Source of the DNA: Planctomycetota bacterium
Lineage (GTDB): Bacteria > Planctomycetota > J058
Length of the DNA: 64,000 bases
Direction of reading: 5' to 3'
Assembly (NCBI GenBank): GCA_023954375.1
Contig: JAMLIC010000006.1
Span: 82,972 to 146,971, forward strand
Made by a program: the position numbers and the translations under genes. Positions 6,276 through 55,902 of this stretch are shown in pieces. The stretch's first letter is position 1, and each line of letters opens with the position of its first letter. The notes under the pieces are model-generated. The model was not told the origin of the DNA. It ran no database searches and saw only the letters and a program-made list of their open reading frames with translations.

Positions 6276-6493
6276 GCCGCACCTCCGGTCGGGGTCGTGC
6301 TTGCAAGCGGGGCGCCGGGCGCACACGCTCAGGAGGCGCGGGGGGTTGGGGCCGGGCGGCCCCGCCCCCGCGCCCGTCCAGGGTGTGCGTCCGTGCACGG
6401 GGGCACAGGTCGTGGGAAGGTCCGAGGAGCGCGAACCACCGGGCGCCGGCCTCCTCGGCCGCGTCGTCGCGGCCGGGCCCGATCCGGGCCACA

Positions 6494-7941
6494 TGCTCGA
6501 CCTGGCGCTGGGGCTGCTCGTCGAGGGCGTCGGCGCCGAGCGCGGCGTCCTCGTGCTGCTGGGCGACGGCGGCGCCGCGGCCGAGACGGTCGCCCGCAAC
6601 ATCCGCGACGCCGAGCTCGAGGGCCACGACTTCGCCTACAGCCGGCGGATCGTCGAGGAGGTGGCCCGGACCGGCGCGCCGGTGCTCGTGCGCGACGCCT
6701 CGCGCGACCCGCGCTTCCGCGACGCCGAGTCGGTGGCCGGCCTGGCGATCCGCTCCGTGCTGGCGGTGCCGGTCGTCGGGCTCGCCGTGCTCTACCTCGA
6801 CGACCGCGCCGCCGCCGGCCGCTTCGACGACGCGTCGCGGGCCCTGGCCGAGCGCCTCGTGGACGAGCTCACGCCCTGCCTGGCCCTGATCCGCGACCGC
6901 GTGCGCCTCGAGCGCACGGTCGCCGGGCTGCGGGCGGCGCCGGCGAGCGATGAGCGCTGGACGATCGTCGGCGACGCCGAGCCCATGCGGCGCCTGCGGC
7001 GCGAGGCGGAGCGCGCTGCGCGCTGGCACCTGCCGCTCCTGATCGAGGGCGAGAGCGGGACGGGCAAGGCGCTCGTCGCGCGCGCCGTCCACGCCGCGAG
7101 CGGGCGGCGCGACGGGCCGTTCGTGGCCGAGTCGTGCGCGGCGATCTCGGACGAGCTCCTGCCGAGCGAGCTCTTCGGCCACGTGCGTGGCGCCTTCAGC
7201 GGGGCCGTCCGCGACCGCCAGGGGCTGTTCGAGACGGCGTCCGGGGGGACGCTCCTCCTCGACCAGGCCGCCGCCATGTCGCCCGCGCTCCAGGCCGCCC
7301 TCCTGCGCGTGCTCGAGGAGGGCGAGGTGCGGCCCCTGGGCGCGGAGAAGAAGCGGCGCGTCGACGTGCGCCTCATCGTGTCGACGAACGAGCCCCTCTC
7401 GGCGCTCGTCGCCGCCGGCCGCTTCCGCGAGGACCTGCTCTACCGGCTGAACGTCCTCCACCTGCGCGTGCCGCCCCTGCGCGAGCGGCGCGAGGACGTG
7501 CCGGCGCTCCTCGACCACTTCCTGCGCCGCTGCGCCGAGGAGGTCGGGCGGCCGCCGCCGGTCGTCGGCGACGCGGCGCGCGAGCTCCTCGTGGCCTTCC
7601 CCTGGCCGGGGAACGTGCGGCAGCTCGAGAACGAGGTGCGCCGGCTGGCGGCGCTGGGCGTGCGGCGCGTCCTGCCGCGCCACCTCACGGACGACGTCCT
7701 CGCCGGGGCGCGCGGCGGCGCGGGCGCCGCCCTGCCGGTCGAGCTGCGGCGGCTGATCGACGCCGGCAAGACGCTCGACGAGGTCCTGGGCGAGCAGGAG
7801 CGGGCGCTGATCGCCCAGGCGCTCGCGGCCTCGGGCGGGACCGTCGCGGGGGCAGCGCGCCTCCTCGGCCTCGAGCGGACGACGCTCCTGCGCCGGGCCC
7901 GGCGCCACGGCCTGCGCGCGGCGGACGGGGGCGGCGAGTGA
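6494..7941 (+). CDS. Sigma-54-dependent transcriptional activator with N-terminal GAF domain
   Basis: GAF-like N-terminus, then AAA+ domain with Walker A GESGTGK, the GAFSGA (GAFTGA-type) sigma-54 contact loop, ELFGH and an Arg finger. C-terminal Fis-type HTH (TVAGAARLLGLERTTLLRRARRHGL). The start is ATG 6494; an alternative is GTG 6385. Confidence 0.85.
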
Positions 7942-14213: not shown

Positions 14214-14285
14214 AGGCGGCACCCGGATTTGAACCGGGGGATGACGGATTTGCAATCCGTTGCCTTACCACTTGGCTATGCCGCC
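14214..14285 (-). tRNA. tRNA-Cys (GCA)
   Basis: Minus-strand sequence GGCGGCATAGCCAAGTGGTAAGGCAACGGATTGCAAATCCGTCATCCCCCGGTTCAAATCCGGGTGCCGCCT folds as a cloverleaf. Acceptor stem GGCGGCA pairs with UGCCGCC. Anticodon loop UUGCAAA gives anticodon GCA. The T arm is GGTTCAAATCC. Confidence 0.85.
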
Positions 14286-14709: not shown

Positions 14710-16512
14710 CTACTCGAAGCGCACCGCGTCGATCGCCACGCTGCGTACGCGGCTGGCCGTGCGCACGACGAGGACGAGGTCGACCGCGCTGACGCGCGCG
14801 CGGTCGAAGCCGGCGTCGCCCGAGACGGCCATGCCGCCCAGGTCGACGTGCACGTCGAGGAAGCGCCCGTGCGGCGAGCGGCCGTCCCACACCGGCAGGC
14901 TCCCGCCGGGGACGCTCGGCTCGTGCACGCGCGCCCAGGCCTGGCCGCCGGCCGCGTCGACGAGCCGCACCCACAGGCCCAGGCCCGACCAGCCGTGGTT
15001 CGACGTCTGCAGCGCGCGCAGGACCAGGCGCCGGTGCCCGCGCGTGTCCACCGGGGCGTCGCTCGCCATGCGCCACACCGACTGGGCCGCGGTCGGCGTG
15101 AGGAGCGTGTGCCGGAGCGCCAGCGTGGGGAAGCCCGCCATGTCGGGGTAGACGCTCTGCTCGTGGCGGCGCAGGTCGAGGACGAGGTTGCGCCCGAGCA
15201 GGTTTCGCGACGCGTCGCGGTCCTGCGCGTCCTCGACCAGGAGCGTACGCGCGCTCGGGCTCCAGGCGGCCACGGCGTAGGCGCCCGAGCCCTGGTGCGC
15301 CGGGCCGTAGAGCCGCGCGTCGAGGTCGGCCTCGCCGTGCGCCCAGCGGCGCACGAAGCACACGATCCAGTCGGCCACGCGCGCCGTCTGCTGGGCCCGC
15401 GTGATCCGCGCCGCCCCCTCGGCCGGGTGCGCGTCGGAGATCAGGTTGTGCACCCCGCCCCAGAGCGTCACCTGCGTCGTCGGCCCGGCGGCGCGGTCGA
15501 TGAGCTGGTCGGCGATCGGGAAGGTGAGGTCGCCGTCGTTCTCGGCCGCGATGATCAGGCTCGGTGTCCGCGGCTGCTGGTCGAAGATCGGGTAGGCCGG
15601 GGCCAGCCCCGGGGGCGCGGTCTCGGGGAAGTAGCGCAGGTCGAACGCCATCAGGTAGATCACGCCGCGCAGGCGCAGCTCGAAGCTCCGCTGGTGGCTG
15701 GCGTGGACCGCGCCGCCGCCGCGGCTGTGGCCGGCGAAGAACAGCGCGCCCTCGTCGAACGCGCCGCCGAGCGGGTCGGCGGCGTCGCTCGAGCGCGCGA
15801 GCAGCAGGTCGGTCACGCCCTCGACCACGCCGGACGCCGACTGCATGCCGAGCTCGGCCCGGTCCTGGTCGTACTCGCGGTCACCCGCGTTGAAGCTGTG
15901 GCCGGCGAACGACAGCCGGTCCTCGATGCTCGCCACGGCGACGCCGTGCGAGGCGATCAGCCGGTGGAAGGCGTTGTAGCTGTCGTGGTCGAAGCCGCGC
16001 CCGCGGTGGAACAGGAGCAGCGGCGCCGGCCGGCCGAGCCCGACCGGGAGGGTCAGCCGCACGCGCGTGCGCACGAGGCGCTGGTCGAACGTGCTGCGCA
16101 CGTCGACGCGCAGGTCCTGCTGCGTCGTCGTGTGCGGGCCGCTCGTCTCGAACAGGCGCGGCGCGGCGGCGAGGTCGCGCTCGTCGGCGTCGCGGACGGT
16201 CGCCTGGACGCGCACCGGGTAGGTCACGCCGCTCGCCTCGCGGGCCTCGAGCACCGCCTCGAACACGCCCCGCTGCGCGGGCGTGCCCTCGACCTGCCCG
16301 GCGGCGGCGAGCCGCAGCCCCTGCGGGAGGCGGCCCGACACGAGGCGATAGGTCGCGCCGCGCGGGAGGGCGTCGCTGAACGCCTGGCCCACGTGGCCGA
16401 CCCGCAGCGGCCAGAACGGCCCCGGGTCGACCGGCGGGACGGTGCGCGCGCGCGGCGCGCCCGCGAGCGCGAGGAGGACGGCGGTCACCCAGATCAGCCG
16501 GCGAGATACCAC
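14710..16512 (-). CDS. Secreted alpha/beta-hydrolase (esterase/lipase-like) with extra C-terminal domain
   Basis: Signal peptide MVSRRLIWVTAVLLALAGA. Nucleophile elbow FFAGHSRGGGAV (GxSxG). 600 aa. Confidence 0.7.
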   Translation of the reverse strand: MVSRRLIWVTAVLLALAGAPRARTVPPVDPGPFWPLRVGHVGQAFSDALPRGATYRLVSGRLPQGLRLAAAGQVEGTPAQRGVFEAVLEAREASGVTYPVRVQATVRDADERDLAAAPRLFETSGPHTTTQQDLRVDVRSTFDQRLVRTRVRLTLPVGLGRPAPLLLFHRGRGFDHDSYNAFHRLIASHGVAVASIEDRLSFAGHSFNAGDREYDQDRAELGMQSASGVVEGVTDLLLARSSDAADPLGGAFDEGALFFAGHSRGGGAVHASHQRSFELRLRGVIYLMAFDLRYFPETAPPGLAPAYPIFDQQPRTPSLIIAAENDGDLTFPIADQLIDRAAGPTTQVTLWGGVHNLISDAHPAEGAARITRAQQTARVADWIVCFVRRWAHGEADLDARLYGPAHQGSGAYAVAAWSPSARTLLVEDAQDRDASRNLLGRNLVLDLRRHEQSVYPDMAGFPTLALRHTLLTPTAAQSVWRMASDAPVDTRGHRRLVLRALQTSNHGWSGLGLWVRLVDAAGGQAWARVHEPSVPGGSLPVWDGRSPHGRFLDVHVDLGGMAVSGDAGFDRARVSAVDLVLVVRTASRVRSVAIDAVRFE

Positions 16513-17117
16513 CCGTCACCTCGCTTCCGCAGTCGAATCAGGTAGGCGCCGGCGGCGCCGCCCACGTGGATGCGGAGGCGCGCCTCGTCGGGCGCGGGCC
16601 CGGGCTCGACCGTCACCTCGCCCAGGCGCGCGGCGCCCGCCACCCGCCGCCAGTAGGGCTGGACGGCCGGGGCCAGGAAGCGCCGCTCGGCGTCGAGCGC
16701 GTCGTCCTCGTCGAGCGTCGGGCGCTCGCCGCCGGGTCGCGACAGGCGCGCGAGCGCCGCCACGTCGGCGGCCGCCAGGGCCTCGAGGGCGCTGCCCAGG
16801 AGCGTCGTCGGCGTCGTGCGGTCGATCGGGCGCGTCGACTCGGCGATCGCCGGCGCGGGCCGCCCGAACGCGGCCACCGGCCCCGCCTCGTCGAGGCCGT
16901 CGAAGCCGCCGATGGGGCCGGGCAGCGCGAGGCGGTCGAGGCCCTCGGCCGCCACCTGCTCCAGCCACTCGCGCCGGTCGGCGTCCGTCGCGGCCGCGGC
17001 GATCGACCCGATCGGCGCCAGGTCGCCGGCCGGAGCGTCGCGCTCCGCGTCGCCGCCGCACCCGGCGACGAGCAGGCCCAGCCCGAGAACGAGTGCTGCG
17101 CCGCGGCGCCCCCGCAT
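16494..17117 (-). CDS. Hypothetical lipoprotein
   Basis: MRGRRGAALVLGLGLLVAGC with lipobox LVAGC. The 3' end overlaps the hydrolase start by 19 nt. Confidence 0.5.
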   Translation of the reverse strand: MRGRRGAALVLGLGLLVAGCGGDAERDAPAGDLAPIGSIAAAATDADRREWLEQVAAEGLDRLALPGPIGGFDGLDEAGPVAAFGRPAPAIAESTRPIDRTTPTTLLGSALEALAAADVAALARLSRPGGERPTLDEDDALDAERRFLAPAVQPYWRRVAGAARLGEVTVEPGPAPDEARLRIHVGGAAGAYLIRLRKRGDGWYLAG

Positions 17118-24440: not shown

Positions 24441-27400
24441 ATGCTGCGGCCGATGCCCGAGCCGGCGCCCGACGAGCCACCCGCCCCGCTGCACTCGCCG
24501 CCGCCCGACGACGTCGAGCTCCCGCCGATCTTCGACGTGCCGTCCCCGCCGCTTGCAACCAGCGGCGAGCTCCCGCCGGAGCTGGTCCTCCCGGCGCCCG
24601 CGCCCGCACCGCCCGCACCGCCCGCCCTGTCAGCCGCGCCGGGCGCCGCGTCCGGCCGGCGCAAGGCCCGCCTGTCGGCGTCGTCGAGCCGGCTGCGCCT
24701 GCTCGAGCAGCCCAGCGCGCCGCCGCGCCGGCGCCGGGTCGCGGTCGCGCTGCTGGTCGTCGCGGTCCTCGGCGCGGCGGCCGGCCTGGTCGCGGTCGGA
24801 CTGCGGCCGCAGCCCTTCGTCCCCACGTCGCTGGGGGCGCTCGAGGTCCACGTCGACGGGTTGGCCGCTGAAGGCCGCTACGCCGAGGCGATCGCCGCGC
24901 TGGAGGCCTGCCCGCCGGCGATCCGGCGGGTGGCCACGGGCGAGTTCCTCGAGCGCCGGGCGGCGCCCCTGCGCCGCGCGCTCGCGTTCCAGGGCGAGCT
25001 CGAGGCCGCCCTCGCCGGGGGGCGGACCGCGCTCGAGGACATGGTCCTGCGGGTCGAGCGCTACGACGTCGACCCCGACCTCCTCGCCCTGCCCATCGTG
25101 GCCCCCTGGAGGGCCCGGGCGCGCGCGGCGCTCGGCCCGAAGGCCTACGACGACCTGGCCGTGTTCGGCCGCGACGACGCGCCCGTGGCGGCGCCTGCGC
25201 CGACGCGTCCCGCGCCGGCGCCCGCTGCAGGCCCTGCAGGACCGGTGATCGAGCGCCTCGACGACCCCGAGCGGCGCGAGGCGATGGCGGCCGCGGCGCG
25301 GCGCGCGGCGGCGCGCGTCGACGCGCCGGTCCGCCCTGGCCGAGCGCGAGGCGGCCGCGGCCGCGCGGCTGGCCGCCGAGGCCGCCCGCGCGGCCAGGGA
25401 CCCGCGCCCGCTCGCCGTCCCGGCGGGGCGCGGGCGGCCGGCCGGCGAGGGCCGCCTCGTGGGCCACGGGGCGCGGCGCTTCGTCGTGCAGGTCGCGCCC
25501 GGCGACGTGCGGACCTTCACCTGGGCCGACGCGCCGCCGGCGCTCGCCTGCGACGTGCTCGAGCGCGTGATCGACCTCGACGACGCCGACGACCGCCGGC
25601 GGGTGGCCCTGGCGGCCCTCCGCGGCGGCCTGTTCGAGCGGGCGCAGGGGCACCTCGACGCCGCGCGGGCGCTCGACGTGGACCTGGCCCTCCCGGACCC
25701 CGCCCCCCTCGTGCCGCTGGCGCGGCTGTTCCGCGGCGCGGGCGAGGTCGGCGCGGACGGGGTCGCGCTGACCTACGAGTTCGAGCGCGAGGACGAGCTG
25801 CGCGACCTGCGCGCGCTGGCCTACTCCGAGGCGCGCCTCGACGGCGGGGACCTGGTCCTCGCCTCCGGGCTCCTGGCGCTGGCCGCGCTCACGGGCGAGG
25901 ACCTCCCGCCCGAGGCGGCCGTGGGCTTCGCCAGCCTGCGCGGCCGGTGGCGCGGCCTCGAGCTGGAGCTCGCGCTGGCCACGCCCAAGGCCGACCTGCT
26001 GCTGGGCCTCAGCGGCGCCGTCGTCGCCGTGGGTCCGGGCGGCGCGGGCTGGGGGACGTGGTCCGAGCTGGCGACGCTGAGGACGAAGGGGCGGCTCGCG
26101 CCGGGCGTCCCCCTGCGCGTCGGGCTGTGGCCGGTCGACGAGGGGCGGGTGCGGGTCGTCGTCAAGCAGGGGGCGGAGGGGCTCCTCGAGGCGGTCGTGC
26201 CGTCGCCGTCGCCGCTGGAGCTGGTCCTCGGCGCGCGCGGCGGCCCGGTGCGCGTCCAGCGCCTCGCCCTTCGCGGGGCGCTCGACCCCGCCTGGCTCGA
26301 GGTCGAGCGCGAGCGGGTGCCGTTCCTGCTCGAGGTCGAGCTCGACCGCTGGCGGCGCCGCGTCGAGGCCGAGGCGCGCGAGCAGGGCGCGCTCCCGCCG
26401 CACCTCGACGTGACGAGCGCCGAGGACGAGGCGGCGCTCGCCGGCGTGCCGCGCTCCGCGCGCCAGCTCCTGGCGCAGGCCCGCGCCCGGCTGCGCGCCG
26501 GCGACCAGGCCGGGGCCGAGGAGCTGACACGGCGGGCCGTCGCCGAGGGCCGCGGCCGCTACTGGGCGGCGGAGTATCTGCTGGCGCAGCTCGAGCTCGA
26601 CCGCGGAGGGCGCCACGCGGCGAGCCTCGAGGGGCCGCGGATCCGCCTCGACCACGCGCTGGCCGCGATCGACGACTTCTTCGAGGCGCTCGCCGCCCGC
26701 AGCCGCGTGCACCTCGAGGCCGGGCGCCTCGACGAGGCGCGGCGCGACGCCGACGCGGCGATCGCGCTCCGGCCCGACCACGCCCCGGCGAGGCTCGCCC
26801 GCGCCTGGGTGGCCTTGCAGGAGGGGCAGCTCGACCTGGCGGTCGACGAGGCCCGCCTGGCGGCGACGCTGGCCGACGGGCTCGGCGACGCCCTCGAGCA
26901 GCTCGAGGCCCTGCGCGACGGCCCGCCCTGGAACGACCCGGTCACGAGAGAGACGGTCGGCTACCGGGTGACGACCGACATGCCCGCGCGGCTCGACGCC
27001 TTCCTCGCGGCGCTCGAGGCCACGCGCGCCGCCCTCCCGCGCGTGTTCCCCTGCCTGCGCGCGCGCCCCGGCGCCCCGGTGCGCGTGGGCCGCGTGCTCC
27101 TCTTCTCGCGCGCCGAGGACTACCACCGCTTCGCCTGGCGCACGACGGGCGACCGCAAGGAGTCCACGGCCGGCTACTTCAGCCCGCGCGCCGGCGTCCT
27201 GCACATCTACGACAGCCCCGAGGGGCCCGAGCAGACGCTGCGCGTCCTGCGCCACGAGGCCACGCACCAGTGGGTCCACGCGCTCGGCCTCGAGCTGCCC
27301 TACTGGGCCAACGAGGCGATCGCCGACTACCTGGGCGGCTACGACCCGTCCACCGGCAAGAGCCGCCCCGACCCGCAGCAGGTGCGCGCCCTGGTCGAGG

Positions 27401-27717
27401 GCAAGGACCGCCTGCGCTCGCTCTTCGACCTGATGACGCTCTCGCCGACCGAGTTCTACTCCGGCGACGTCTACCTGCAGTACGCGCAGGCCTGGTCGTT
27501 CGTGCATCACTGCATGGAGGGCGACGACCCCCTGCTCAAGGCGGCGCTCTTCGCCTACCTGGCGAAGCACGGCGAGGGGCAGGCCGGCGACCGCTCGCGC
27601 CAGGCCGGCGTCTCGCTCGAGCACATCTACGCGGCGACCTTCCACCAGCTCGACATGGCGAAGGTCGAGCGCGCGTGGTGGGCGCACGTGGAGCGGATGG
27701 CCAGGGAGTCCCCGTGA
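24441..27717 (+). CDS. Large Pro-rich/TM/helical-repeat protein with C-terminal DUF1570 (HExxH) domain; apparent -1 frameshift near 25315
   Basis: The N-terminal 290 aa (Pro-rich, TM helix VAVALLVVAVLGAAAGLVAVGL) are in the frame of track ORF 24441... From about 25320 the sensible translation (LAEREAAAAARLAAEAARAA...) continues in the frame of ORF 25459..27717. That ORF ends with DUF1570-like HEATHQWVH...WANEAIADY. The first frame then degenerates to Arg-rich nonsense up to 27755. Confidence 0.6.
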
Positions 27718-29133: not shown

Positions 29134-29343
29134 ATGGACGAGGCGCGCCGCGTGCAGCTCGAGGTGTTCCGCCGCTGGCCCCCGGCGGAGCGCGTGCGTC
29201 GAGGCATGGAGCTGACGAGGCTGGCCCTCGCCGCGCGCGACGCGCGGCTGCGCCGGCAGCATCCGGACGCCACCGAGGAGGAGCTGCGCTGGATCCGCGC
29301 CCGCGAGGCGCTGGGGCTCCCTCACGACGCCCCCTTGCCCTGA
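29134..29343 (+). CDS. Small hypothetical protein (69 aa)
   Basis: GC3-rich ORF in the gap between the NUDIX gene and the downstream operon. No homology recognised. Confidence 0.35.
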   Translation: MDEARRVQLEVFRRWPPAERVRRGMELTRLALAARDARLRRQHPDATEEELRWIRAREALGLPHDAPLP

Positions 29344-29392
29344 CGCAGGGTCCCGTGGCCGGTCTGCCGGCCCCCCTGTAGAGTGGCCCCGC

Positions 29393-30622
29393 GTGAGCAA
29401 GGACAAGAAGAAGAAGCGGCAGAAGGACCTGCACCGGCGGCTCAGCCAGCGGCCGCAGGCGCCCGACCTGATGGCCGCGGCGCAGGTGCTCTCGCAGCCG
29501 GACCGCTTCGCGGCCGCCCTGCGGCTGTTCTCCGAGCGCGCGCTGCTCACGCCGGGCCTGGCGGGCTTCCGCCTGCCGCACGGGCCGCTCCTCGACGCGC
29601 TCCTGGAGCGCCCGGCGCCCCCGCAGGGCGAGGGGGACGACGCGGCGCGGCGCCGGGCGGTGCGGGCGGAGCTCATCCCGCGCCTGGCCTCGCCCGCGCT
29701 CCTGCACGAGCTCCAGGCGGCGATCCAGCGCGGCAAGAAGGACGTGCAGGCCGAGCCGGAGCTCATGGCGCTCTTCGCGGCGCAGGCCCTGGCAACGGCC
29801 TGCCGCGAGGTCAACGGCGCGCCCGACCACGTCTTCTGGGAGCTGCCGTTCGACATCACCGTCACCGACCTGCTGCTGTCGGGCGAGCTCGTCTCGGAGG
29901 TCGCCGCCCGGGCGCTCGCGATCGACGAGGCCAAGGTGGCGGGCGCCTTCGCGCGCGCGCTGGTGCAGGGCGAGACCTCGCGCGAGCTCGACGAGCTGGG
30001 CGTCCACGAGCGCGACCCGGCGCGCCTCGCCGCGAGGTGGGCCGAGGCGGCGCGCGAGCGCGAGCCCTACCACCTGCAGCTCGACGCCGTCCTGCACCTC
30101 CTGTGGGTGCAGCAGCAGGAGGTCGTGCGCGGCGACGAGGTCCTGCGCGTCGGGCTCACCGCCGCGCGCCGCGAGCAGATGACCCGGGCGGTCGAGGCGG
30201 CCTACGTCGAGGACATGACCGAGCAGGTGCGCGAGGACCTGACCCGCTGGTCGCGCGGGCGCCTGCTCCAGCTCCGCGACGAGCCGCCGCAGATCGCGAA
30301 GGACGCCGTCGAGCACGAGCGGCTGCGCTGCGCCGCCCTGCACCTGGGGCTGCGCACGCTCCCCGCCGAGGAGGACGCGCTCCTGAGGGCGATCCACGCC
30401 CGGAGCCTGCTCCTGGCGCGGCGGCGCGCGCCGTCGATCGAGGTGCCGTTCGTGCACGAGGTCTCGGCGAAGCCCGACGACCTGTTCGCGATCGACGAGT
30501 TCGAGCGGTTCCTCACCGAGCGCGGCGACGTGACGCGCGCGCGGCGCGTGCGCCGCTACCGCGAGTTCGTGCGCAAGGCGCGCGAGGAGGCCCAGGCCGC
30601 GCAGGCTGGAGGCGGCGCGTGA
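29393..30622 (+). CDS. Conserved hypothetical protein (409 aa), Lys-rich N-terminus
   Basis: MSKDKKKKRQKD... Its stop overlaps the start of the next gene (GTGA). I recognise no domain. Confidence 0.5.
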   Translation: MSKDKKKKRQKDLHRRLSQRPQAPDLMAAAQVLSQPDRFAAALRLFSERALLTPGLAGFRLPHGPLLDALLERPAPPQGEGDDAARRRAVRAELIPRLASPALLHELQAAIQRGKKDVQAEPELMALFAAQALATACREVNGAPDHVFWELPFDITVTDLLLSGELVSEVAARALAIDEAKVAGAFARALVQGETSRELDELGVHERDPARLAARWAEAAREREPYHLQLDAVLHLLWVQQQEVVRGDEVLRVGLTAARREQMTRAVEAAYVEDMTEQVREDLTRWSRGRLLQLRDEPPQIAKDAVEHERLRCAALHLGLRTLPAEEDALLRAIHARSLLLARRRAPSIEVPFVHEVSAKPDDLFAIDEFERFLTERGDVTRARRVRRYREFVRKAREEAQAAQAGGGA

Positions 30623-37493: not shown

Positions 37494-37553
37494 CCATGTG
37501 ACCCGCGCCTCGTCCTCGCGCGCGCCCCGCCCGCCCTGGTAACGTCCACTCCG

Positions 37554-40500
37554 ATGGCCGCAGGAGTCGAGGCGGGCCCACAGGACTGCTTCGCGCAGCT
37601 CGACCGCGGCGCGCGGCTCGGCGGCTACCGCGTTCGCCGGGTCCTCTCCCGCGGCAACGGCGGGGCGCTCCACCAGGCGAAGGGGCCCGACGGCACGCGG
37701 GTGCTGCTGCGGATCCTCGGCCCGCGCGCGCGGGTCCCCGAGGCGCGCGCCCGCCTGGAGGCCGACCTCGAGCGCCTGGCGCGCGTCGACCACCGGTGCG
37801 TGGCGCGCCTGGTCGGGCGCGCCGAGGACCACTTCGCGCTCGAGCACCCGGGCGGGCTGACCCTCCTCGAGCTGATTCGCCGCGGCAGGCCCTTCGACGC
37901 CGCGGAGGTGGTGTGGATCGGGCACGGGCTGGCGTCCGGGCTGCGGGCCCTGCACGCCGTCGGGCTGTCGCACGGCAACGTGTCGCCGTCGGCGATCCAC
38001 GTCACCGAGGACGGGCCGGTGCTGGTGGACCTGGGCTGGCCCGCGCGGCTGGGCGTGGCGGGCGCCCAGCCCCCGAGCCCGGCCGGCGACGTGCGCGCCC
38101 TCGCGTCGTCGCTGACCTTCGCCGTGGTCGGCGCGCCGTCCGAGCCGAAGGAGCGGGTCCACGTGGCCGGCCTGCCGAAGGAGGTGGCGTCGCTCCTGCG
38201 GGCGGCGCTCGACCCGACGGCGCCGGCGCCGGCCCTGGAGAAGCTGCGCCGCGTCTTCGAGCGGGCCGCCGACGCCCTGGGGCTCCTCGACGGGGCGGGC
38301 GCGCCGGCGACGCTCGGGCGGCGGCTCCGGGAGGCGATCCGCCTGCACGCGTCGGGGGTCTCGTCCGTCTCGGAGGAGGAGGCGTCGTCCGCCGACACCC
38401 ACGTGCCGCTGGCGCCGGGGCCCTCGTCGACGGCGCCGGGGCCGATCGTGCCGCCGCCGCCCCTCCCGCCGGGGCCCGAGGCGGGCACGGCGACCGAGGT
38501 CGAGGCCCCGCCGGAGGTCGTGGCCGCGGCGCGGGAGCCGTCGGTGGCGCCGCTGCAGGTCGAGTCGCTGGCGCTCGACGTCTCGTCCGAGGAGCGCGCG
38601 GCCCTGCCGGAGGGGCCGCCCAGCGCGTTCGCCGAGACGGTCGAGGGGCTCCTCACCGGCGAGCCGCCGCGGATCCGCACGCCCTCGGGCCGGATCGTGC
38701 CGCAGAACCCGTTCGCCTCGGCCGACCTCGTCCTCGACCGGCCCTCGTCGACCGGCTCGCAGGACGGCGCCGCCCCCACCGACCTCGAGCTCCGCCACGG
38801 CCTCGAGCTGATCCACCGCCGCGTGCTCGGCCAGGGCGGCATGGGCGTCGTCCACCTCGTCCTCGACCCGCGCCTCGGCCGGCGCGCCGCCCTCAAGCTC
38901 CTGCGCACGCCGGTCACCCCCTCGCGCGTGCGCCGGTTCCGCCGCGAGACCGTCGTCACGGCGCGCCTCGACCACCCGTGCATCCCCCCGGTCTACGAGG
39001 CCGGCGCGACGCCCTCGGGCACCCACTACCTGCTCATGCGCTTCGTGGAGGGCGAGTCGCTGGCGGAGATCCTGACGCGCCGCCAGGCCGAGGCGCTGGG
39101 CGAGCGGGAGCGCGCCGCCCTGGCGCGCGAGCTCCTGCACGCGCTGGTCAAGGTCGGCGAGGCGGTCGCCTACGCCCACGACAAGGGGATCGTCCACCGC
39201 GACCTCAAGCCGGCGAACATCATGATCGGCGCCTTCGGCGAGGTCCTCGTCATGGACTGGGGCCTCGCCCGCGACCTCCACGAGAGCAGCGACGAGGACG
39301 CCTGGATCCGCACCGAGCTGGGCGTCGCGCCGCCGGCCGAGCCGGCGCCGCCGGCGGCCGGGATCACGCAGGACGGCGCGATCCTCGGCACACCGGGCTA
39401 CCTCGCGCCCGAGCAGGCGCGCGGCGAGGACGTCGACGCGCGCGCCGACGTCTTCTCGCTCGGGGCCGTCCTCTGCGAGATCCTCACCGGCCGCCCGCCG
39501 GTGATCGGCCCGACGACCCTGGCGATCCTCGGGCTCACGCGCGGCGGGGAGGTCGAGTTCCCCCGCCAGCGCTTCGTCGACGTCGACCCGGAGCTCGACG
39601 CGATCGCCCGCAAGGCCCTGGCCCCCGACGCCGAGGCGCGCTACCCGACCGCCGACGCCTTCGCCACCGACCTGCGCAACTACCTCGAGGGGCGCAACGT
39701 CTCCGCCTACCGCTACCGGCCCACCGAGCGGCTGGCGCGGGCGCTGCGGCGCCACCCGGCCATCGTGGCCCTCGCCGCGGCCGCGCTGGTGCTCTGGGGC
39801 CTGACCCACGGCCTCCTCGAGCGCGCGCGGGTCGAGCAGGACAAACTCCGGGCCGAGCAGCGCGAGGAGGTGCGGCGGCGCGTCACCGACCTCCTCGTCG
39901 AGGCCGAGCTCTCGCTCGACGACAAGCGCTACGCCCACGCGCAGACCGTGTTCCTCCAGGCGCTGACGCTCGACGACGGGTCCGAGCGGGCCCGGCAGGG
40001 CCAGGCGCTCGCCGAGCGGCTCGAGGCGGCGGAGCGCCGGCGCGCCGCCGAGGAGGCGGCGCGCCGCCAGGAGGTCGAGCGCAGCCGCCACGAGGCGCAG
40101 CAGGTGAGCGACCTCCTCGCCCGCGGCGCCGCGCTGCTCGCCGCGGGCGACCTCGCCGGCGCCCGGCGGGCCCACGAGCAGGCGCTCGGCTTCGATGACC
40201 AGGCGCTCGCGGCCGCGCGCGACGCCCTGGCGCTCCTCGGCGAGCGCCTCGAGCGCGCCGAGGAGGACGCCCGCGACGCGGCCCAGCGCGCGCGCGACGC
40301 GGAGCAGGCGGCCCGGTTCCTCGAGGCCGGCGGGGCGCACCTCGCCGCCGGCCGCTTCCGCGAGGCGCAGGCGTCGCTCTTCAAGGCCCTGGCCTTCGGC
40401 TCGCCCGACGCCCAGCCGCTCCTCCTCCGCGTCGAGGAGGGGCTGGTCGCGGAGCGCACGCGCGAGGTCCAGGCCGAGCTCGAGCGCCGCGAGGCCGAGC

Positions 40501-41405
40501 AGGCGGCCCGCCTGGTCGAGCGCGCCGCCGAGGCGCTGGCGCGGGGCCGCCTGGAGGAGGCGCGCACGGCGTTCATCCAGGCGCTCGGCTTCGACGGCAA
40601 GAGCGAGGCCGCCCGCAAGGGCCTGCTCGAGGCCGACCGCGCGCTGCACGCCCGGGCCGAGGCCGCCCGCGCCGAGGAGGCGCGGCGCGAGCGCGTCCGC
40701 CGCGTGCGCCGCAGCCAGGAGCAGGCGCGCGCCGCCCTGGCCCGGGCCCGCGAGCTCGACCGCGCCGGCGCCTCCGAGCGCGAGGTCCGCGAGCAGTACC
40801 TCGCCGCGCTCGACGCCCACAACGAGGCGCTGTTCCTCCTCCCCGACGACCCCGGCGCGCGCCAGGAGAAGGTCGCCGTCGCGCGCGAGCTGGCCCAGCG
40901 CCTGTTCGAGGACGGCCACCAGGAGCTGGCGCAGTTCGTCCTGCGCCTCGCCGGCGCCGAGGCGGAGGCGGCGGGCGCCGGGCTCGACCCGCTGCGCGAC
41001 CCCGACCTCGTGGTGATCGAGGCCGACCGCGTGCGCATCGCCCACGCCTTCGACGGCCCGGTGCGCTTCCTCCCCTCGCGGGCGTTCGACCGCGTGCGCG
41101 AGTACGTGCGCTCCTTCCGGGGCCGCTACCGCGTCGTCGTGCAGGTCCGCTCCGAGGCCACGCGCGGCAACCCGCCGCGCGTCCACGCCACGGGCCTGTG
41201 GCTGCGCGTCGAGGACCGCCAGAACAACACCGTCCACCCGACGATCAAGCTCGAGTTCGAGGGCGGCCCCTACGTCCGCCCGGTGACCGTCGACCCGTCG
41301 GGGCGCACGGTGACCCCGTTCGAGCGGACGCTGTCGCTCGACACGGAGCGCTACGTACGCGAGGTCGAGGCGGCCCTGCGGCGGCTGCTGGAGCCCCCGC
41401 AGTGA
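37554..41405 (+). CDS. Tandem pseudokinase-kinase Ser/Thr protein kinase with TM helix and long coiled-coil/C-terminal domain
   Basis: The N-terminal domain is kinase-like but degenerate: the VAIK Lys is replaced (VLLRIL), the HRD box reads LSHGNVSPSAI, and DFG reads DLG. A Pro-rich linker follows. The second domain is canonical: GQGGMGVV, ALK, HRDLKPAN, DWGLAR, GTPGYLAPE. TM helix AIVALAAAALVLWGL. About 450 aa of Ala/Glu/Arg coiled coil and a conserved C-terminal domain follow. Confidence 0.8.
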   Translation: MAAGVEAGPQDCFAQLDRGARLGGYRVRRVLSRGNGGALHQAKGPDGTRVLLRILGPRARVPEARARLEADLERLARVDHRCVARLVGRAEDHFALEHPGGLTLLELIRRGRPFDAAEVVWIGHGLASGLRALHAVGLSHGNVSPSAIHVTEDGPVLVDLGWPARLGVAGAQPPSPAGDVRALASSLTFAVVGAPSEPKERVHVAGLPKEVASLLRAALDPTAPAPALEKLRRVFERAADALGLLDGAGAPATLGRRLREAIRLHASGVSSVSEEEASSADTHVPLAPGPSSTAPGPIVPPPPLPPGPEAGTATEVEAPPEVVAAAREPSVAPLQVESLALDVSSEERAALPEGPPSAFAETVEGLLTGEPPRIRTPSGRIVPQNPFASADLVLDRPSSTGSQDGAAPTDLELRHGLELIHRRVLGQGGMGVVHLVLDPRLGRRAALKLLRTPVTPSRVRRFRRETVVTARLDHPCIPPVYEAGATPSGTHYLLMRFVEGESLAEILTRRQAEALGERERAALARELLHALVKVGEAVAYAHDKGIVHRDLKPANIMIGAFGEVLVMDWGLARDLHESSDEDAWIRTELGVAPPAEPAPPAAGITQDGAILGTPGYLAPEQARGEDVDARADVFSLGAVLCEILTGRPPVIGPTTLAILGLTRGGEVEFPRQRFVDVDPELDAIARKALAPDAEARYPTADAFATDLRNYLEGRNVSAYRYRPTERLARALRRHPAIVALAAAALVLWGLTHGLLERARVEQDKLRAEQREEVRRRVTDLLVEAELSLDDKRYAHAQTVFLQALTLDDGSERARQGQALAERLEAAERRRAAEEAARRQEVERSRHEAQQVSDLLARGAALLAAGDLAGARRAHEQALGFDDQALAAARDALALLGERLERAEEDARDAAQRARDAEQAARFLEAGGAHLAAGRFREAQASLFKALAFGSPDAQPLLLRVEEGLVAERTREVQAELERREAEQAARLVERAAEALARGRLEEARTAFIQALGFDGKSEAARKGLLEADRALHARAEAARAEEARRERVRRVRRSQEQARAALARARELDRAGASEREVREQYLAALDAHNEALFLLPDDPGARQEKVAVARELAQRLFEDGHQELAQFVLRLAGAEAEAAGAGLDPLRDPDLVVIEADRVRIAHAFDGPVRFLPSRAFDRVREYVRSFRGRYRVVVQVRSEATRGNPPRVHATGLWLRVEDRQNNTVHPTIKLEFEGGPYVRPVTVDPSGRTVTPFERTLSLDTERYVREVEAALRRLLEPPQ

Positions 41406-52182: not shown

Positions 52183-54942
52183 ATGAAGATCTCCGTCATC
52201 GGCACCGGCTACGTCGGCCTCGTCACCGGGACCTGCTTCGCCGACAACGGCAACGACGTCTGGTGCGTCGACATCGACGAGAAGAAGATCGAGCGGCTGA
52301 ACCGCGGCGAGGTCCCGATCTACGAGCCGGGCCTCGACCAGATGATCGAGCGCAACGTCCAGGGCGAGCGCCTCCGGTTCACGACCGACCTGGCCGACGC
52401 CGTCCGCCGCACGCGGATCGTGTTCCTCTGCGTCGGGACCCCGTCCGCGCCCGACGGCTCGCCCGACATGCGCTACGTCTACAAGGCCGCCGAGGACGTG
52501 GCCCGCGCCATGGAGGAGCACACGATCCTCGTCCTCAAGTCGACCGTCCCCGTGGGCACGGCCGCCGAGGTGCGCAAGCGCGTGGCGGCCGCCACGAAGC
52601 TCCCCTTCGACGTCGTCAGCAACCCCGAGTTCCTCAAGGAGGGCCACGCGGTCGACGACTTCCTCAAGCCCGACCGCGTCGTGATCGGCACCGACGACCC
52701 ACGCGTGGCCCTGATCATGAAGGAGCTCTACGACCCCTTCGTGCGCACGGGCAACCCGATCCTCGTCATGGACAACGTCTCGGCCGAGCTGACGAAGTAC
52801 GGCGCCAACGCGCTGCTCGCCGCGCGCATCTCGTTCATGAACGAGCTGGCCAACCTCGCCGACCGCGTCGGCGCCGACATCAACCAGGTGCGGCAGGGGA
52901 TGGGCAGCGATGCGCGGATCGGACACTCGTTCCTGTTCCCGGGCATCGGCTACGGGGGCAGCTGCCTCCTCGGCCGCGAGACCGTCCTGGTGCGCCAGGG
53001 CGGGCGGGTCCGGCTGACCCGCTTCGACCGCCTGTTCGCGGCGCTCGCGCCCGGGGCGGGCGATGAGGCCGGCGCGGTCGCGCCGGAGGGGCTCGAGGTC
53101 CTCTCCTGGGAGCCGTCGACGGGCGCGCCGTCGTGGCGGCCGGTCTCCGCCGTCACCCGCCGCCCCTTCGAGGGCGAGGCGCTCGAGGTGCGCACGAAGA
53201 TGGGCCGCCGGGTCCGCTGCACGCCCGACCACCCGTTCGTCGCCTCCGACGCGGCGCACGGTCCGCGGCGCGTCGTGCTCGCCGCCGAGCTGACCGCCGA
53301 CCACTGGCTGCCCCTGGCGCAGGGGCGCGAGCAGGGCGAGGCGCCGCGCCGCGTCGACCTGCTCGGGAGCCTCGAGCGGCTCGGCGTGCGCCAGGACGAG
53401 GTGATCGTCCGCTTGGCCCCCGCGGTCGCCGCGGCGCTGGACGTCCGCGTCGTCCGGGCCGCGATCGAGCGCCTCGGCGAGCACGCCTCGCCCGCATCGC
53501 GCGCCCACGACATCGTCCGCAACGGCGCGCTCCGCCTCCACGAGGCGCGCGCGCTGGGGGTGGCGCTCGAGGGCGCCGCGCTCGGGACGGCGAAGAACGG
53601 CACCTACGTGCCGACCGGCCTCGACCTCGACGAGGCGTTCTGGCGCGTCGTCGGGCTCTACATCGCCGAGGGTCACTGCTCGGTCGACGGGCGTCGGCAC
53701 CGGCTCTCCTGGTCGTTCCACCCGACCGACGAGGACGCCCTCGTCGAGGAGGTGGCGGCCTTCTGGGAGCGGCTGGGCGTCAAGGCGACGGTCCTCCGGC
53801 GGTCCACCACGACCCAGGTGACCGTCTCGTCGCGCCTCCTGGCGACCTGGTGGCTGGGTGAGCTCGGCCTCGGCGCCGACTGCTACGCGCAGCGCGTCCC
53901 CGACCTCGTCTGGGAGCAGCCCGAGGCCCACCGCCGGGCGCTGCTCGCCGGGGTCTGGCAGGGCGACGGGTCGTGGTCGCGCGTCAACGGCGGCCCGAGC
54001 GTCGTGCTCGAGCACGGCACGGCCAGCCCGGAGCTGGCGGACGGCCTCCTCCGGCTCCTCGGGGACCTCGGCATCGTGGCGCGGACCAAGGTGGGCCGCA
54101 CCGCGAAGTCGACCGTCGACACGCACTGGCTCGTGGTCTCCGGCGCCGACCAGGTCGAGCGGCTGGTCGACCTGGTGAAGCCGGCCCAGCGCGCCGACCT
54201 CGTCGGGAGCGTCGCGCGCCAGCTGAAGCGCATCGCCCCAACGGGGTACCGGCGCTTCGAGGGGGACGCGTCGGCCTGGGTCCGCGTGACCGAGGTCCGT
54301 CGCCGCCCCTACCAGGGCTGGGTCTACTCGCTCGAGGTCCCCGGGCCCGAGACGTTCGTGACGACGGGCGGCCTCGTCGTCCACAACTGCTTCCCCAAGG
54401 ACGTGGACGCCCTCGGTTACACCGGCAAGAACGCCGGCATGGACCTCAAGCTGCTCGCCGCCACCAACGAGGTGAACCGCACGCAGAAGCGGGTCCTGTT
54501 CGACAAGATCAGCGCGCGCTTCGGCGGCGACCTGAAGGGCAAGCGGATCGCGATCTGGGGCCTGGCGTTCAAGCCGCGCACCGACGACATGCGCGAGGCG
54601 CCCTCGCTGACCGTGATCGGCCTCCTGCTCGAGGCCGGCGCCACCGTCCACGCCTACGACCCGGCGGCGACCGAGACGACCCGCGCCGTGCTGGGCGACA
54701 GGATCCAGTACGCGCAGAAGCAGTACCGGGCGCTCGAGGGCGCCGACGCGCTGGCGATCTGCACCGAGTGGAACGAGTTCCGCCGCCCCGACTGGGAGCG
54801 GATCAGGGCGTCGCTCCGGCAGCCGATCATCTTCGACGGCCGCAACATCTTCGAGCCGGCGCGCGTCGAGGAGGCGGGCTTCGAGTACTACGGCATCGGC
54901 CGCGGGCGCAAGCTCGAGCTGTCGCCGCGGGCGAGGGGCTGA
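52183..54942 (+). CDS. ugd: UDP-glucose 6-dehydrogenase interrupted by an in-frame intein (precursor 919 aa)
   Basis: N-extein MKISVIGTGYVGLVTG...GIGYGGS, then the intein, then C-extein CFPKDVDALGYTG...KPRTDDMREAPS... Splicing would restore the catalytic motif GGSCFPKD. All Ugd signature segments are present in the exteins. Confidence 0.9.
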   Translation: MKISVIGTGYVGLVTGTCFADNGNDVWCVDIDEKKIERLNRGEVPIYEPGLDQMIERNVQGERLRFTTDLADAVRRTRIVFLCVGTPSAPDGSPDMRYVYKAAEDVARAMEEHTILVLKSTVPVGTAAEVRKRVAAATKLPFDVVSNPEFLKEGHAVDDFLKPDRVVIGTDDPRVALIMKELYDPFVRTGNPILVMDNVSAELTKYGANALLAARISFMNELANLADRVGADINQVRQGMGSDARIGHSFLFPGIGYGGSCLLGRETVLVRQGGRVRLTRFDRLFAALAPGAGDEAGAVAPEGLEVLSWEPSTGAPSWRPVSAVTRRPFEGEALEVRTKMGRRVRCTPDHPFVASDAAHGPRRVVLAAELTADHWLPLAQGREQGEAPRRVDLLGSLERLGVRQDEVIVRLAPAVAAALDVRVVRAAIERLGEHASPASRAHDIVRNGALRLHEARALGVALEGAALGTAKNGTYVPTGLDLDEAFWRVVGLYIAEGHCSVDGRRHRLSWSFHPTDEDALVEEVAAFWERLGVKATVLRRSTTTQVTVSSRLLATWWLGELGLGADCYAQRVPDLVWEQPEAHRRALLAGVWQGDGSWSRVNGGPSVVLEHGTASPELADGLLRLLGDLGIVARTKVGRTAKSTVDTHWLVVSGADQVERLVDLVKPAQRADLVGSVARQLKRIAPTGYRRFEGDASAWVRVTEVRRRPYQGWVYSLEVPGPETFVTTGGLVVHNCFPKDVDALGYTGKNAGMDLKLLAATNEVNRTQKRVLFDKISARFGGDLKGKRIAIWGLAFKPRTDDMREAPSLTVIGLLLEAGATVHAYDPAATETTRAVLGDRIQYAQKQYRALEGADALAICTEWNEFRRPDWERIRASLRQPIIFDGRNIFEPARVEEAGFEYYGIGRGRKLELSPRARG
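52963..54387 (+). mobile_element. Intein (475 aa) with LAGLIDADG homing-endonuclease domain inside ugd
   Basis: Begins with Cys1 (CLLGRETVLV). Ends with the canonical His-Asn (GGLVVHN) followed by +1 Cys (CFPKD). Block B-like TPDHPF. Two LAGLIDADG motifs: VGLYIAEGHCS and LLAGVWQGDGSWS. Confidence 0.85.
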
Positions 54943-54945
54943 GCC

Positions 54946-55902
54946 GTGCCGCGCACGGTCGTCACCGGCGGGGCCGGGTTCATCGGCTCGCACCTGTGCG
55001 AGCACTTCGTCGCGCAGGGCCACGAGGTCATCTGCATCGACAACCTGCTCACGGGGAGCCGCGACAACGTCGCGCACCTCGAGGGCGACGAGCGCTTCCG
55101 CTTCCGCCTGCACGACGTCACCACCTACATCGACGTGCCGGGGCCCGTGGACAACGTGCTCCACTTCGCGTCGCCGGCGTCGCCGGCCGACTTCGAGCGG
55201 CTGCCCATCCAGATCATGAAGGTCGGGGCCCACGGCACGCACAACGCGCTCGGCCTGGCCAAGGCGAAGAAGGCGCGCTTCCTCCTCGCGTCGACCAGCG
55301 AGGTCTACGGCGACCCCGAGGTCAACCCGCAGCCCGAGAGCTACCTGGGCCGCGTCAACTGCATCGGCATCCGCGGCGTCTACGACGAGGCGAAGCGCTT
55401 CGCCGAGGCGCTGACCATGGCCTACCGGCGCGTGCACGGCGTCGAGACGCGGATCGTCCGCATCTTCAACACTTACGGCCCGCGCATGCAGCTCGACGAC
55501 GGGCGCGCCCTGCCGAACTTCATCACGCAGGCGCTCACGGGCGAGCCGCTGACGGTCTACGGCGACGGCTCGCAGACGCGCTCGTTCGGCTTCGTGTCGG
55601 ACCTCGTGGACGGGATCGACCGCCTCCTGCGCTCGGACGTGTGGGAGCCGGTGAACATCGGGAACCCCGAGGAGATCACCCTCCTGCAGGCCGCGCGCGA
55701 GGTGCTCGAGCTCACCGGGAGCCGGAGCGAGCTCGTGTTCAGGCCGCTGCCGCCGGGCGACCCGAAGGTCCGCCGCCCCGACATCACGCGCGCGCGCGAC
55801 CTGCTCGGCTGGACGCCGACGGTGGCCCGGCGCGTCGGCTATCAGCGCACGATCGACGACTTCCGCGCGCGGCTCGAGGCGAAGGGGCTCCTGCGGAGCT
55901 GA
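54946..55902 (+). CDS. uxs: UDP-glucuronate decarboxylase (UDP-xylose synthase, SDR family)
   Basis: [10 protein letters not shown] Rossmann motif and YDEAK catalytic motif. Closely collinear with UXS enzymes (NIGNPEE...[11 protein letters not shown]). GTG start 3 nt after the ugd stop. Confidence 0.85.

Follow-up and report, generated by a model that had tools for sequence, protein, structure and literature searches.

The interrupted ugd gene and its intein

The window, a stretch of 64 kb from a Planctomycetota contig, carries a ugd gene encoding a homologue of UDP-glucose 6-dehydrogenase (Ugd) that is interrupted by an intein of the LAGLIDADG type. The open reading frame (ORF) of ugd occupies positions 52183-54942 on the + strand, with the start taken as the ATG at 52183 (MKISVIGTGYVG) and the stop codon at 54940-54942, and specifies a precursor of 919 amino acids that corresponds to MCO5166473.1 from a metagenome-assembled genome (MAG) labelled Planctomycetes. 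The insert lies in frame at 52963-54387 and its translation yielded 475 amino acids free of stop codons, commencing with CLLGRE and ending with VVHN, flanked by ...GIGYGGS on the N-terminal side and by a C-terminal side that begins with CFPKD. The original prediction, made from the sequence alone, had described a full-length LAGLIDADG intein situated directly before the catalytic cysteine of Ugd. Its coordinates, junction residues and both LAGLIDADG motifs were reproduced exactly by translation, and the insert was matched by intein and LAGLIDADG hidden Markov models (HMMs) of Pfam and by intein models of NCBIfam. The features of the gene are given below.

52183-52962, + strand: ugd N-extein, Ugd residues 1-260, ending ...GIGYGGS; NAD-binding domain and first part of the central domain (UDPG_MGDP_dh_N, E 6e-65; UDPG_MGDP_dh, residues 200-263)
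52963-54387, + strand: intein of 475 amino acids, a HINT (class-1 splicing) domain interrupted by a homing-endonuclease domain of the LAGLIDADG family (HMMs, AlphaFold2, Foldseek)
52963-52992, + strand: block A; Cys1 (52963-52965) is the predicted nucleophile of the first N-S acyl shift (TIGR01445)
53221-53232, + strand: block B, TPDH (Thr87, His90)
53323-53607, + strand: mostly helical sub-domain, residues ~121-215, with the splicing lobe on one side and the endonuclease core on the other (from the modelled secondary structure)
53647-53673, + strand: LAGLIDADG motif 1, VVGLYIAEG, residues 229-237; predicted catalytic acid Glu236 (53668-53670)
53944-53970, + strand: LAGLIDADG motif 2, LAGVWQGDG, residues 328-336; predicted catalytic acid Asp335 (53965-53967)
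54319-54387, + strand: blocks F and G, WVYSLEVPGPETFVTTGGLVVHN, ending His474-Asn475 (54382-54387) (TIGR01443)
54388-54942, + strand: ugd C-extein, Ugd residues 261-444 and the stop codon
54388-54390, + strand: +1 Cys of CFPKD, predicted to serve at once as splicing nucleophile and Ugd catalytic thiol

Excision of the insert in silico restored a contiguous Ugd of 444 amino acids, in which the insertion point falls between Ser260 and the catalytic Cys261. In this enzyme family the cysteine of the GGxCxxKD motif is the catalytic thiol. The spliced protein aligned with the NCBIfam model TIGR03026 (nucleotide-sugar dehydrogenase) over positions 1-413 of 413 (E 1e-138) and contained all three UDPG_MGDP_dh domains of Pfam. 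The central domain was recognised at residues 200-263 only in the precursor and at 2-93 of its 94 positions once the insert had been removed. Alignment with 3gg2, deposited as the solved structure of a sugar dehydrogenase of the UDP-glucose/GDP-mannose dehydrogenase family, was gap-free across ...GYGGSCFPKDV..., and the next best solved relatives were the bacterial UDP-glucose dehydrogenases 2y0c/2y0e and 4a7p (E 1e-146 to 1e-134). Comparison of the spliced extein with an intein-free orthologue revealed 19 differing positions (18 substitutions and one gap), none of them near the active site. The spliced protein scored below the cut-offs of the NCBIfam equivalog models TuaD and AglM, and UDP-glucose is the probable substrate of the host dehydrogenase as judged by homology. 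ORFs on the opposite strand across the region were rejected as artefacts of the 76% G+C content, since the G+C content at third codon positions (GC3) of ~98% marks the + frame.

The insert itself was matched by Pfam Intein_splicing (E 3e-11) and, in two stretches, by LAGLIDADG_3 (E 5e-15). Both ends exceeded the NCBIfam cut-offs, at 35.2 bits against 24.5 for TIGR01445 intein_Nterm (residues 1-93) and 23.1 bits against 15.6 for TIGR01443 intein_Cterm, and the top full-length NCBIfam match, to the intein-containing Tes model NF045703, covered residues 1-475 (E 5e-25). The junction is canonical, with Cys1, block B TPDH, His474-Asn475 and a +1 Cys. A bacterial intein-like (BIL) domain and a class-3 intein were both rejected because none of Cys1, the TxxH of block B, the terminal HN and the +1 Cys is missing. 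Among 150 family members Cys1, Thr87 and His90 were invariant, and Asn475 was found in 144, the remainder having Gln. Position 335 was Asp in all 150 relatives, while position 236 was Glu in 146, Asp in 2 and Ala in 2, so that an acid was retained in 148 of the 150.

An AlphaFold2 model built from 20 family members had a predicted local distance difference test score of 90.1 and a predicted template modelling (TM) score of 0.90. The top Foldseek match of the model was PI-PkoII, intein 2 of the Thermococcus kodakarensis DNA polymerase (2cw7; E 5.7e-27, query-normalised TM score 0.69), which was also the best match by sequence among solved structures (E 2.9e-12). The matches that followed were likewise bifunctional intein-endonucleases, namely the TliVMA intein, PI-PfuI, the PhoVMA intein and PI-SceI. 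PI-PkoII, PI-PfuI (1dq3), the TliVMA and PhoVMA inteins (7qss, 7qst) and PI-SceI (1vde) share with the window intein a two-part fold in which a HINT domain is interrupted by a pseudo-dimeric LAGLIDADG core (Foldseek E 5.7e-27 to 1e-11), but differ from it in host protein and target site and are only 11-20% identical in sequence. The splicing lobes of the model also matched the mini-inteins 5o9j and 2lqm, supporting the HINT fold, and the nuclease core matched I-DmoI, I-OnuI and I-AniI and displayed the pseudo-dimeric alpha-beta-beta-alpha-beta-beta-alpha arrangement. The sub-domain at residues ~121-215, the least conserved region of the intein, does not obviously correspond to the DNA-recognition or 'stirrup' domains of the PI-type enzymes; from its position in the model it may represent a DNA-recognition or linker domain.

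Relatives and distribution

The window intein is a member of the known 'udp' allele. For this allele, Soucy et al. (2014, PMC4071816) counted 7 Halobacteria, 6 further Euryarchaeota, M. jannaschii among them, and 2 bacteria, while Novikova et al. (2016, PMC4760082) gave UDP-GlcDH inteins for Euryarchaeota only. The hosts named are Methanocaldococcus jannaschii, other Methanococcales, Thermococcus gammatolerans and Halobacteria, together with two bacterial hosts, Dictyoglomus thermophilum and a Fervidibacteria genome (PMC4071816, PMC4760082). Two papers on intein insertion sites did not mention a Ugd host, and the use of the same site in archaeal Ugd, as originally proposed, was hence verified from the sequences. 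The junctions, with slashes marking the insertion boundaries, read GVGWGGS/CLTGD...VVHN/CFPKD in Haloplanus salinus (WP_114449609, cluster P0260) and GIGYGGS/CFHPD...LIHN/CFPKD in Methanothermococcus sp. Ax23 (cluster P0279). By BLASTP, residues 1-475 of the window intein aligned with residues 1-470 of the Haloplanus intein (33% identity, E 5e-69) and with residues 1-460 of the Methanothermococcus intein (25% identity, E 5e-52). The archaeal udp inteins therefore resemble that of the window in host protein, insertion point, colinear homology over the full length, overall size (~460-470 amino acids) and the possession of two LAGLIDADG motifs. Unlike them, the window intein, at 25-33% identity, falls in a bacterial clade that is distinct from theirs and far larger.

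The existence of this clade contradicts the view, also taken in the original prediction, that an intein at this site is rare in bacteria. A scan of species-representative genomes, one genome per species, identified a relative in at least 299, for which the best 80 loci were retained. All of the best 80 were from bacterial MAGs and the junction was identical in 80 of 80. The labels of these 80 encompass at least six phyla and include Gaiellaceae, Solirubrobacterales/Thermoleophilia, Acidimicrobiia and Egibacteraceae (Actinomycetota), Anaeromyxobacter and other Myxococcales, Planctomycetota, Longimicrobiales (Gemmatimonadota), Chloroflexi/Dormibacterota and Acidobacteria. Searching proteins with the intein gave 538 matches; among the 120 listed, all were Ugd proteins, with inteins of 436-493 amino acids and the junction GGS/C...[HS]N/CFPKD wherever it lay on the fragment. 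Among 1.84 billion cluster representatives, 221 clusters matched the intein profile at E<=1e-30, including archaeal Ugd with the same junction. Inteins of clade members in other genera and phyla were 51-65% identical to that of the window, the best match outside its own species cluster reaching 65%, compared with ~96% inside that cluster. Rarity in bacteria thus mirrors the older literature and not the present genome and metagenome data: the large bacterial udp clade is absent from the literature searched, which counts two bacterial cases. All of the best 80 genome matches and every named protein match came from MAGs, and no cultured isolate was found among these close bacterial relatives.

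Several observations were made on individual relatives. In a Thermoleophilaceae MAG (MFD08497.bin.1.25, locus L070, ~3950-4010) the reading frame is broken ~40 residues past Cys1 by a stop and continues in another frame, representing either a decaying intein, together with a dead ugd, or an indel error of assembly. At 78 related loci the GC3 of the intein averaged 8.5 points below that of its own extein, with a maximum of 24 points, a deficit that could be due to relaxed codon selection on the intein or to its foreign origin; the window intein (98.3%) and extein (99.1%) hardly differ in GC3. Some very long proteins contained many stretches matching the intein profile (P0302, of 3308 amino acids with 10 stretches; P0387, of 4920 amino acids with 7; and P0303, P0366 and P0381) and may be multi-intein or HINT-repeat proteins.

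The inteins of Tes, PurL and UDP-ManNAc/GlcNAc-type dehydrogenases are other alleles of one broad intein lineage and differ in their exteins. PurL-type inteins (P0289, P0300, P0359, P0306) had the junction YGN/C...HN/CxGVPT and were 27-30% identical to that of the window. In P0267, P0330, P0337, P0362, P0365, P0367, P0370 and P0373, inteins were found at the homologous catalytic cysteine of paralogous sugar dehydrogenases; the UDP-ManNAc/GlcNAc dehydrogenase junction, of the P0267 type, is GGH/C...HN/CIPxDP, with inteins again 27-30% identical to the window's. The same position is thus taken by one intein lineage in paralogues that share only ~27% extein identity, a situation that may have arisen through ectopic jumps or through old co-divergence.

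Vertical descent, selection and possible mobility

The 90% cluster of MCO5166473.1 contained three more intein-bearing proteins, and the contig of one of these, L085, was syntenic with the window. Identity between the window and L085 was 95.1% for the intein, 93.9% for the extein and 95.0% for the 8 kb upstream. As the divergence of the intein equals that of the flanking genome, the intein was present before the two lines separated, and has been inherited vertically in this lineage from their common ancestor.

An intein-free allele (P0121) was located in MAG GCA_019636275.1, at a locus (L081) where the genes are likewise arranged MMPL - YjeF_N - ugd - uxs. The extein encoded there differed by only 3-4 residues from the spliced exteins of the L085 type, and DNA identity between the intein-bearing L085 and the intein-free L081 was 98.1% across ugd and 97.7% across the upstream 8 kb. 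The empty site is clean and free of any scar, reading ...GGCGGGAGC directly joined to TGCTTCCCC..., also written as ...CTGTTCCCGGGCATCGGCTACGGCGGGAGC joined to TGCTTCCCCAAGGACGTCGACGCGCTGGGC.... The intein is polymorphic, then, in a single population at the species level. On the tree (window(+), (L085(+), L081(-))), the most economical interpretation is that the intein was precisely lost, or replaced by an intein-free allele, in the line of L081; a retained ancestral polymorphism is also possible as the source of the empty site. In a tree of Ugd of the Planctomycetota type, the three intein-bearing alleles (the window, L001 and L004) were each nested among intein-free ones, and the occurrence of the intein in close relatives is sporadic.

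The equal divergence of intein and genome bears directly on whether the window lineage was recently invaded by homing, leaving a fresh insertion within a co-conversion tract. Such an event was first suggested by the closest extein relatives, which were intein-free in 120 of 120 among the matches listed, the best being 96% identical; the discovery of intein-bearing sisters in the 90% cluster reversed this impression, because L085 carries the same intein and the element predates the split. Synonymous changes specific to the window cluster at the splice junctions (52899-54422, a span that adds 64 nt of extein before the intein and 35 nt after it), and of only 4 A/T-ending codons in the 444 of the extein, 3 are found no more than 52 nt from the insertion point (post hoc P ~0.002). 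Mismatches between the window and L081 were also denser near the junction, with 11 in 100 nt following an identical stretch of 200 nt. These changes are not a simple homing footprint, since they are missing from the intein-bearing sister L085 and so are not tied to the intein, and a polarity test of sites near to and far from the junction (8:2 against 34:26) was not significant. The co-conversion tract was rejected on these grounds, and a recent invasion is considered very unlikely. Of the earlier suggestion that the element may still be mobile, the possibility of mobility itself is plausible, but a fresh invasion does not accord with an intein that has co-diverged with its genome.

Between the window and L085 the ratio of non-synonymous to synonymous substitution rates (dN/dS) was 0.14 when computed over the whole intein. 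The endonuclease domain, with 22 synonymous and 11 non-synonymous changes, gave 0.17 and the exteins gave 0.07-0.26, the N-extein having 0.07; absolute values are distorted at a GC3 of ~99% and the relative comparison alone is safe. In 11 other family pairs the endonuclease domain gave values of 0.04-0.32, similar to those of the splicing domain. The endonuclease domain, which had been noted to appear intact, is clearly maintained by purifying selection.

This pattern weighs against a scheme in which splicing is intact, the endonuclease is dead or domesticated, and the intein persists as a vertical passenger, kept since its imprecise loss would destroy an important enzyme. Several results agree with such a passenger: the intein has diverged in step with the genome (95.1% against 95.0% identity), its GC3 of 98.3% is fully adapted to the host, its best match outside the species cluster is only 65% identical, with no near-identical copy in an unrelated genome, and copies on phages or plasmids were not found. 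An inactive endonuclease would, however, be expected to decay or be deleted, whereas here the domain is as strongly constrained as the splicing domain, both catalytic acids are kept in ~98-100% of 150 relatives, and no mini-intein was seen among ~150 full-length family members (436-509 amino acids). Loss of endonuclease activity is accordingly a possibility to be borne in mind, though not the favoured one.

Over longer distances the order of conservation changes. Among members of one clade, conservation is higher in the extein than in the intein, as in pairs of Myxococcota (mean identity 77% for the extein and 63% for the intein). Between phyla this order is reversed: comparison of the window with 53 actinobacterial alleles gave 42-51% identity for the extein and 51-62% for the intein, the intein being the more similar in all 53. 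The intein tree is star-like at depth but follows the host within each clade. These patterns are consistent with an intein that passed between phyla when their Ugd proteins were already divergent and was thereafter inherited vertically.

Taken together, these data very probably describe a genuine and complete class-1 intein of the udp allele that yields a spliced Ugd and an endonuclease, an old and vertically inherited element in this lineage with a history of movement between phyla. Certain points weigh against this interpretation. Position 4 of block F is Ser456 (54328-54330) in place of the Asp of the common consensus, and Glu463 (54349-54351) occupies the place of the usual helper His ('HTF'). 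Constraint on the endonuclease domain could stem from a structural need for splicing instead of from nuclease activity. Absolute dN/dS is distorted at such high GC3. The excess of intein over extein identity between phyla could arise in part from saturation or from strong constraint on the intein. Finally, no phage, plasmid or viral-contig vector was found when viral contigs were searched with the intein profile and phage and plasmid collections by tblastn.

The two block F residues are also the nearest thing to support for a pseudogene or a non-splicing insert, in which case ugd would be non-functional; nothing points to it directly. The block F helper positions (commonly Asp at F:4 and His at F:13) vary among active inteins, so that the residues seen here speak neither for activity nor against it. 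Ser456 is invariant in all 150 of the bacterial-clade inteins examined, intact homologues from many phyla, and the position equivalent to Glu463 is His in 102 and Glu in 27 of the 150 relatives. No stop interrupts the 2757-nt frame of ugd, in which GC3 is of coding type along the whole length, purifying selection on the extein is strong (dN/dS of 0.07 for the N-extein against L085), and the pairing of ugd with uxs is conserved. A dead gene is thus most improbable.

Neighbouring genes, predicted splicing and significance

The gene following ugd is given below.

54946-55902, + strand: uxs, UDP-glucuronate decarboxylase homologue (human UXS1 chains 4gll and 2b69, over residues 3-312)

The match of its product to human UXS1 (E 7.5e-100) far exceeded those to the next best enzymes of the SDR type (1e-35 only), and it is predicted, from this close homology, to be a UDP-xylose synthase. 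Because uxs begins 3 nt past the ugd stop codon, the two genes are probably co-transcribed. The ugd-uxs pair was also present in L081, L082, L083 and L084, and no second ugd or intein was detected within the 64-kb window.

The surroundings consist of ordinary chromosomal genes, collinear with L081 and L085, and include a sigma factor, a Na+/H+ antiporter, desaturases, an MMPL transporter and YjeF_N. Synteny of L081 with the window stops right past uxs (L081 12514-18148); there, uxs is followed by Transposase_31 and Transposase_mut genes and then by an RHS/YD-shell protein with a PT-HINT domain, where the window has a protein of 339 amino acids without a Pfam match, a cyclase and NnrS. Elsewhere in the window, a protein of 1302 amino acids (2727-6635, - strand) has Laminin_G_3 and DUF4214 in addition to a di-haem cytochrome c peroxidase domain, and a Ser/Thr kinase of 1303 amino acids is encoded at 37494-41405 (+ strand). 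The sole Rfam match was a tRNA-Cys(GCA) at 14214-14285 (- strand). Several long ORFs, among them 14710-16515, 25249-27717 and 29216-30622, have coding-type GC3 and no Pfam match.

The anatomy of the intein suggests the following course of events. The 919-amino-acid precursor would be inactive, because 475 residues split the GGSCFPKD loop of the active site. Cys1 would form a thioester with Ser260, aided by Thr87 and His90 of block B; the +1 Cys would then attack this thioester in a trans-thioesterification, giving a branched intermediate; Asn475 would cyclise with the help of His474, releasing the intein; and an S-N shift would rebuild the Ser260-Cys261 peptide bond. The product would be a normal Ugd of 444 amino acids in which the former +1 Cys acts as the catalytic thiol, and which would supply UDP-glucuronate to the UXS homologue. 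Ugd activity should thus depend on splicing, as probably does UDP-xylose synthesis by the adjacent uxs; the original proposal to this effect is a sound one, given the homology of the downstream gene to UDP-glucuronate decarboxylase. The freed intein is a predicted PI-type LAGLIDADG endonuclease with Glu236 and Asp335 as catalytic residues. It would cut an intein-less ugd at ...GGN AGC/TGC TTC CCN AAG GAC..., where the slash marks the insertion point, and be copied in by double-strand-break repair. Its reach across phyla could be explained by the extreme conservation of the target coding sequence, and in this lineage it is an old element that coexists with intein-free alleles in very close relatives.

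Alternatively, the intein may be no mere parasite and may act as a post-translational redox switch, although this is regarded as unlikely. Cys1 and the +1 Cys, the latter doubling as the Ugd catalytic thiol, flank the splice junction; oxidising or thiol stress could trap the precursor through a disulfide between them, and the supply of UDP-glucuronate and UDP-xylose would be withheld until reducing conditions returned. Such a benefit, if real, could explain why so large an intein with its endonuclease is retained under purifying selection and passed on vertically in many bacterial lineages with little obvious opportunity for homing.

With splicing as the preferred interpretation, the annotated 'nucleotide sugar dehydrogenase' of 919 amino acids is better read as a Ugd of 444 amino acids and an intein of 475. 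The findings do not challenge the current understanding of inteins. The udp intein, near-archaeal in the literature searched, forms a large clade in uncultured bacteria, and this wider distribution is more useful to intein biology than the single case. The locus itself constitutes a natural matched set, comprising alleles with and without the intein in strains that are ~98% identical and an intein-bearing relative diverged by 5%, which would allow homing, precise loss and selection on the endonuclease to be studied directly.

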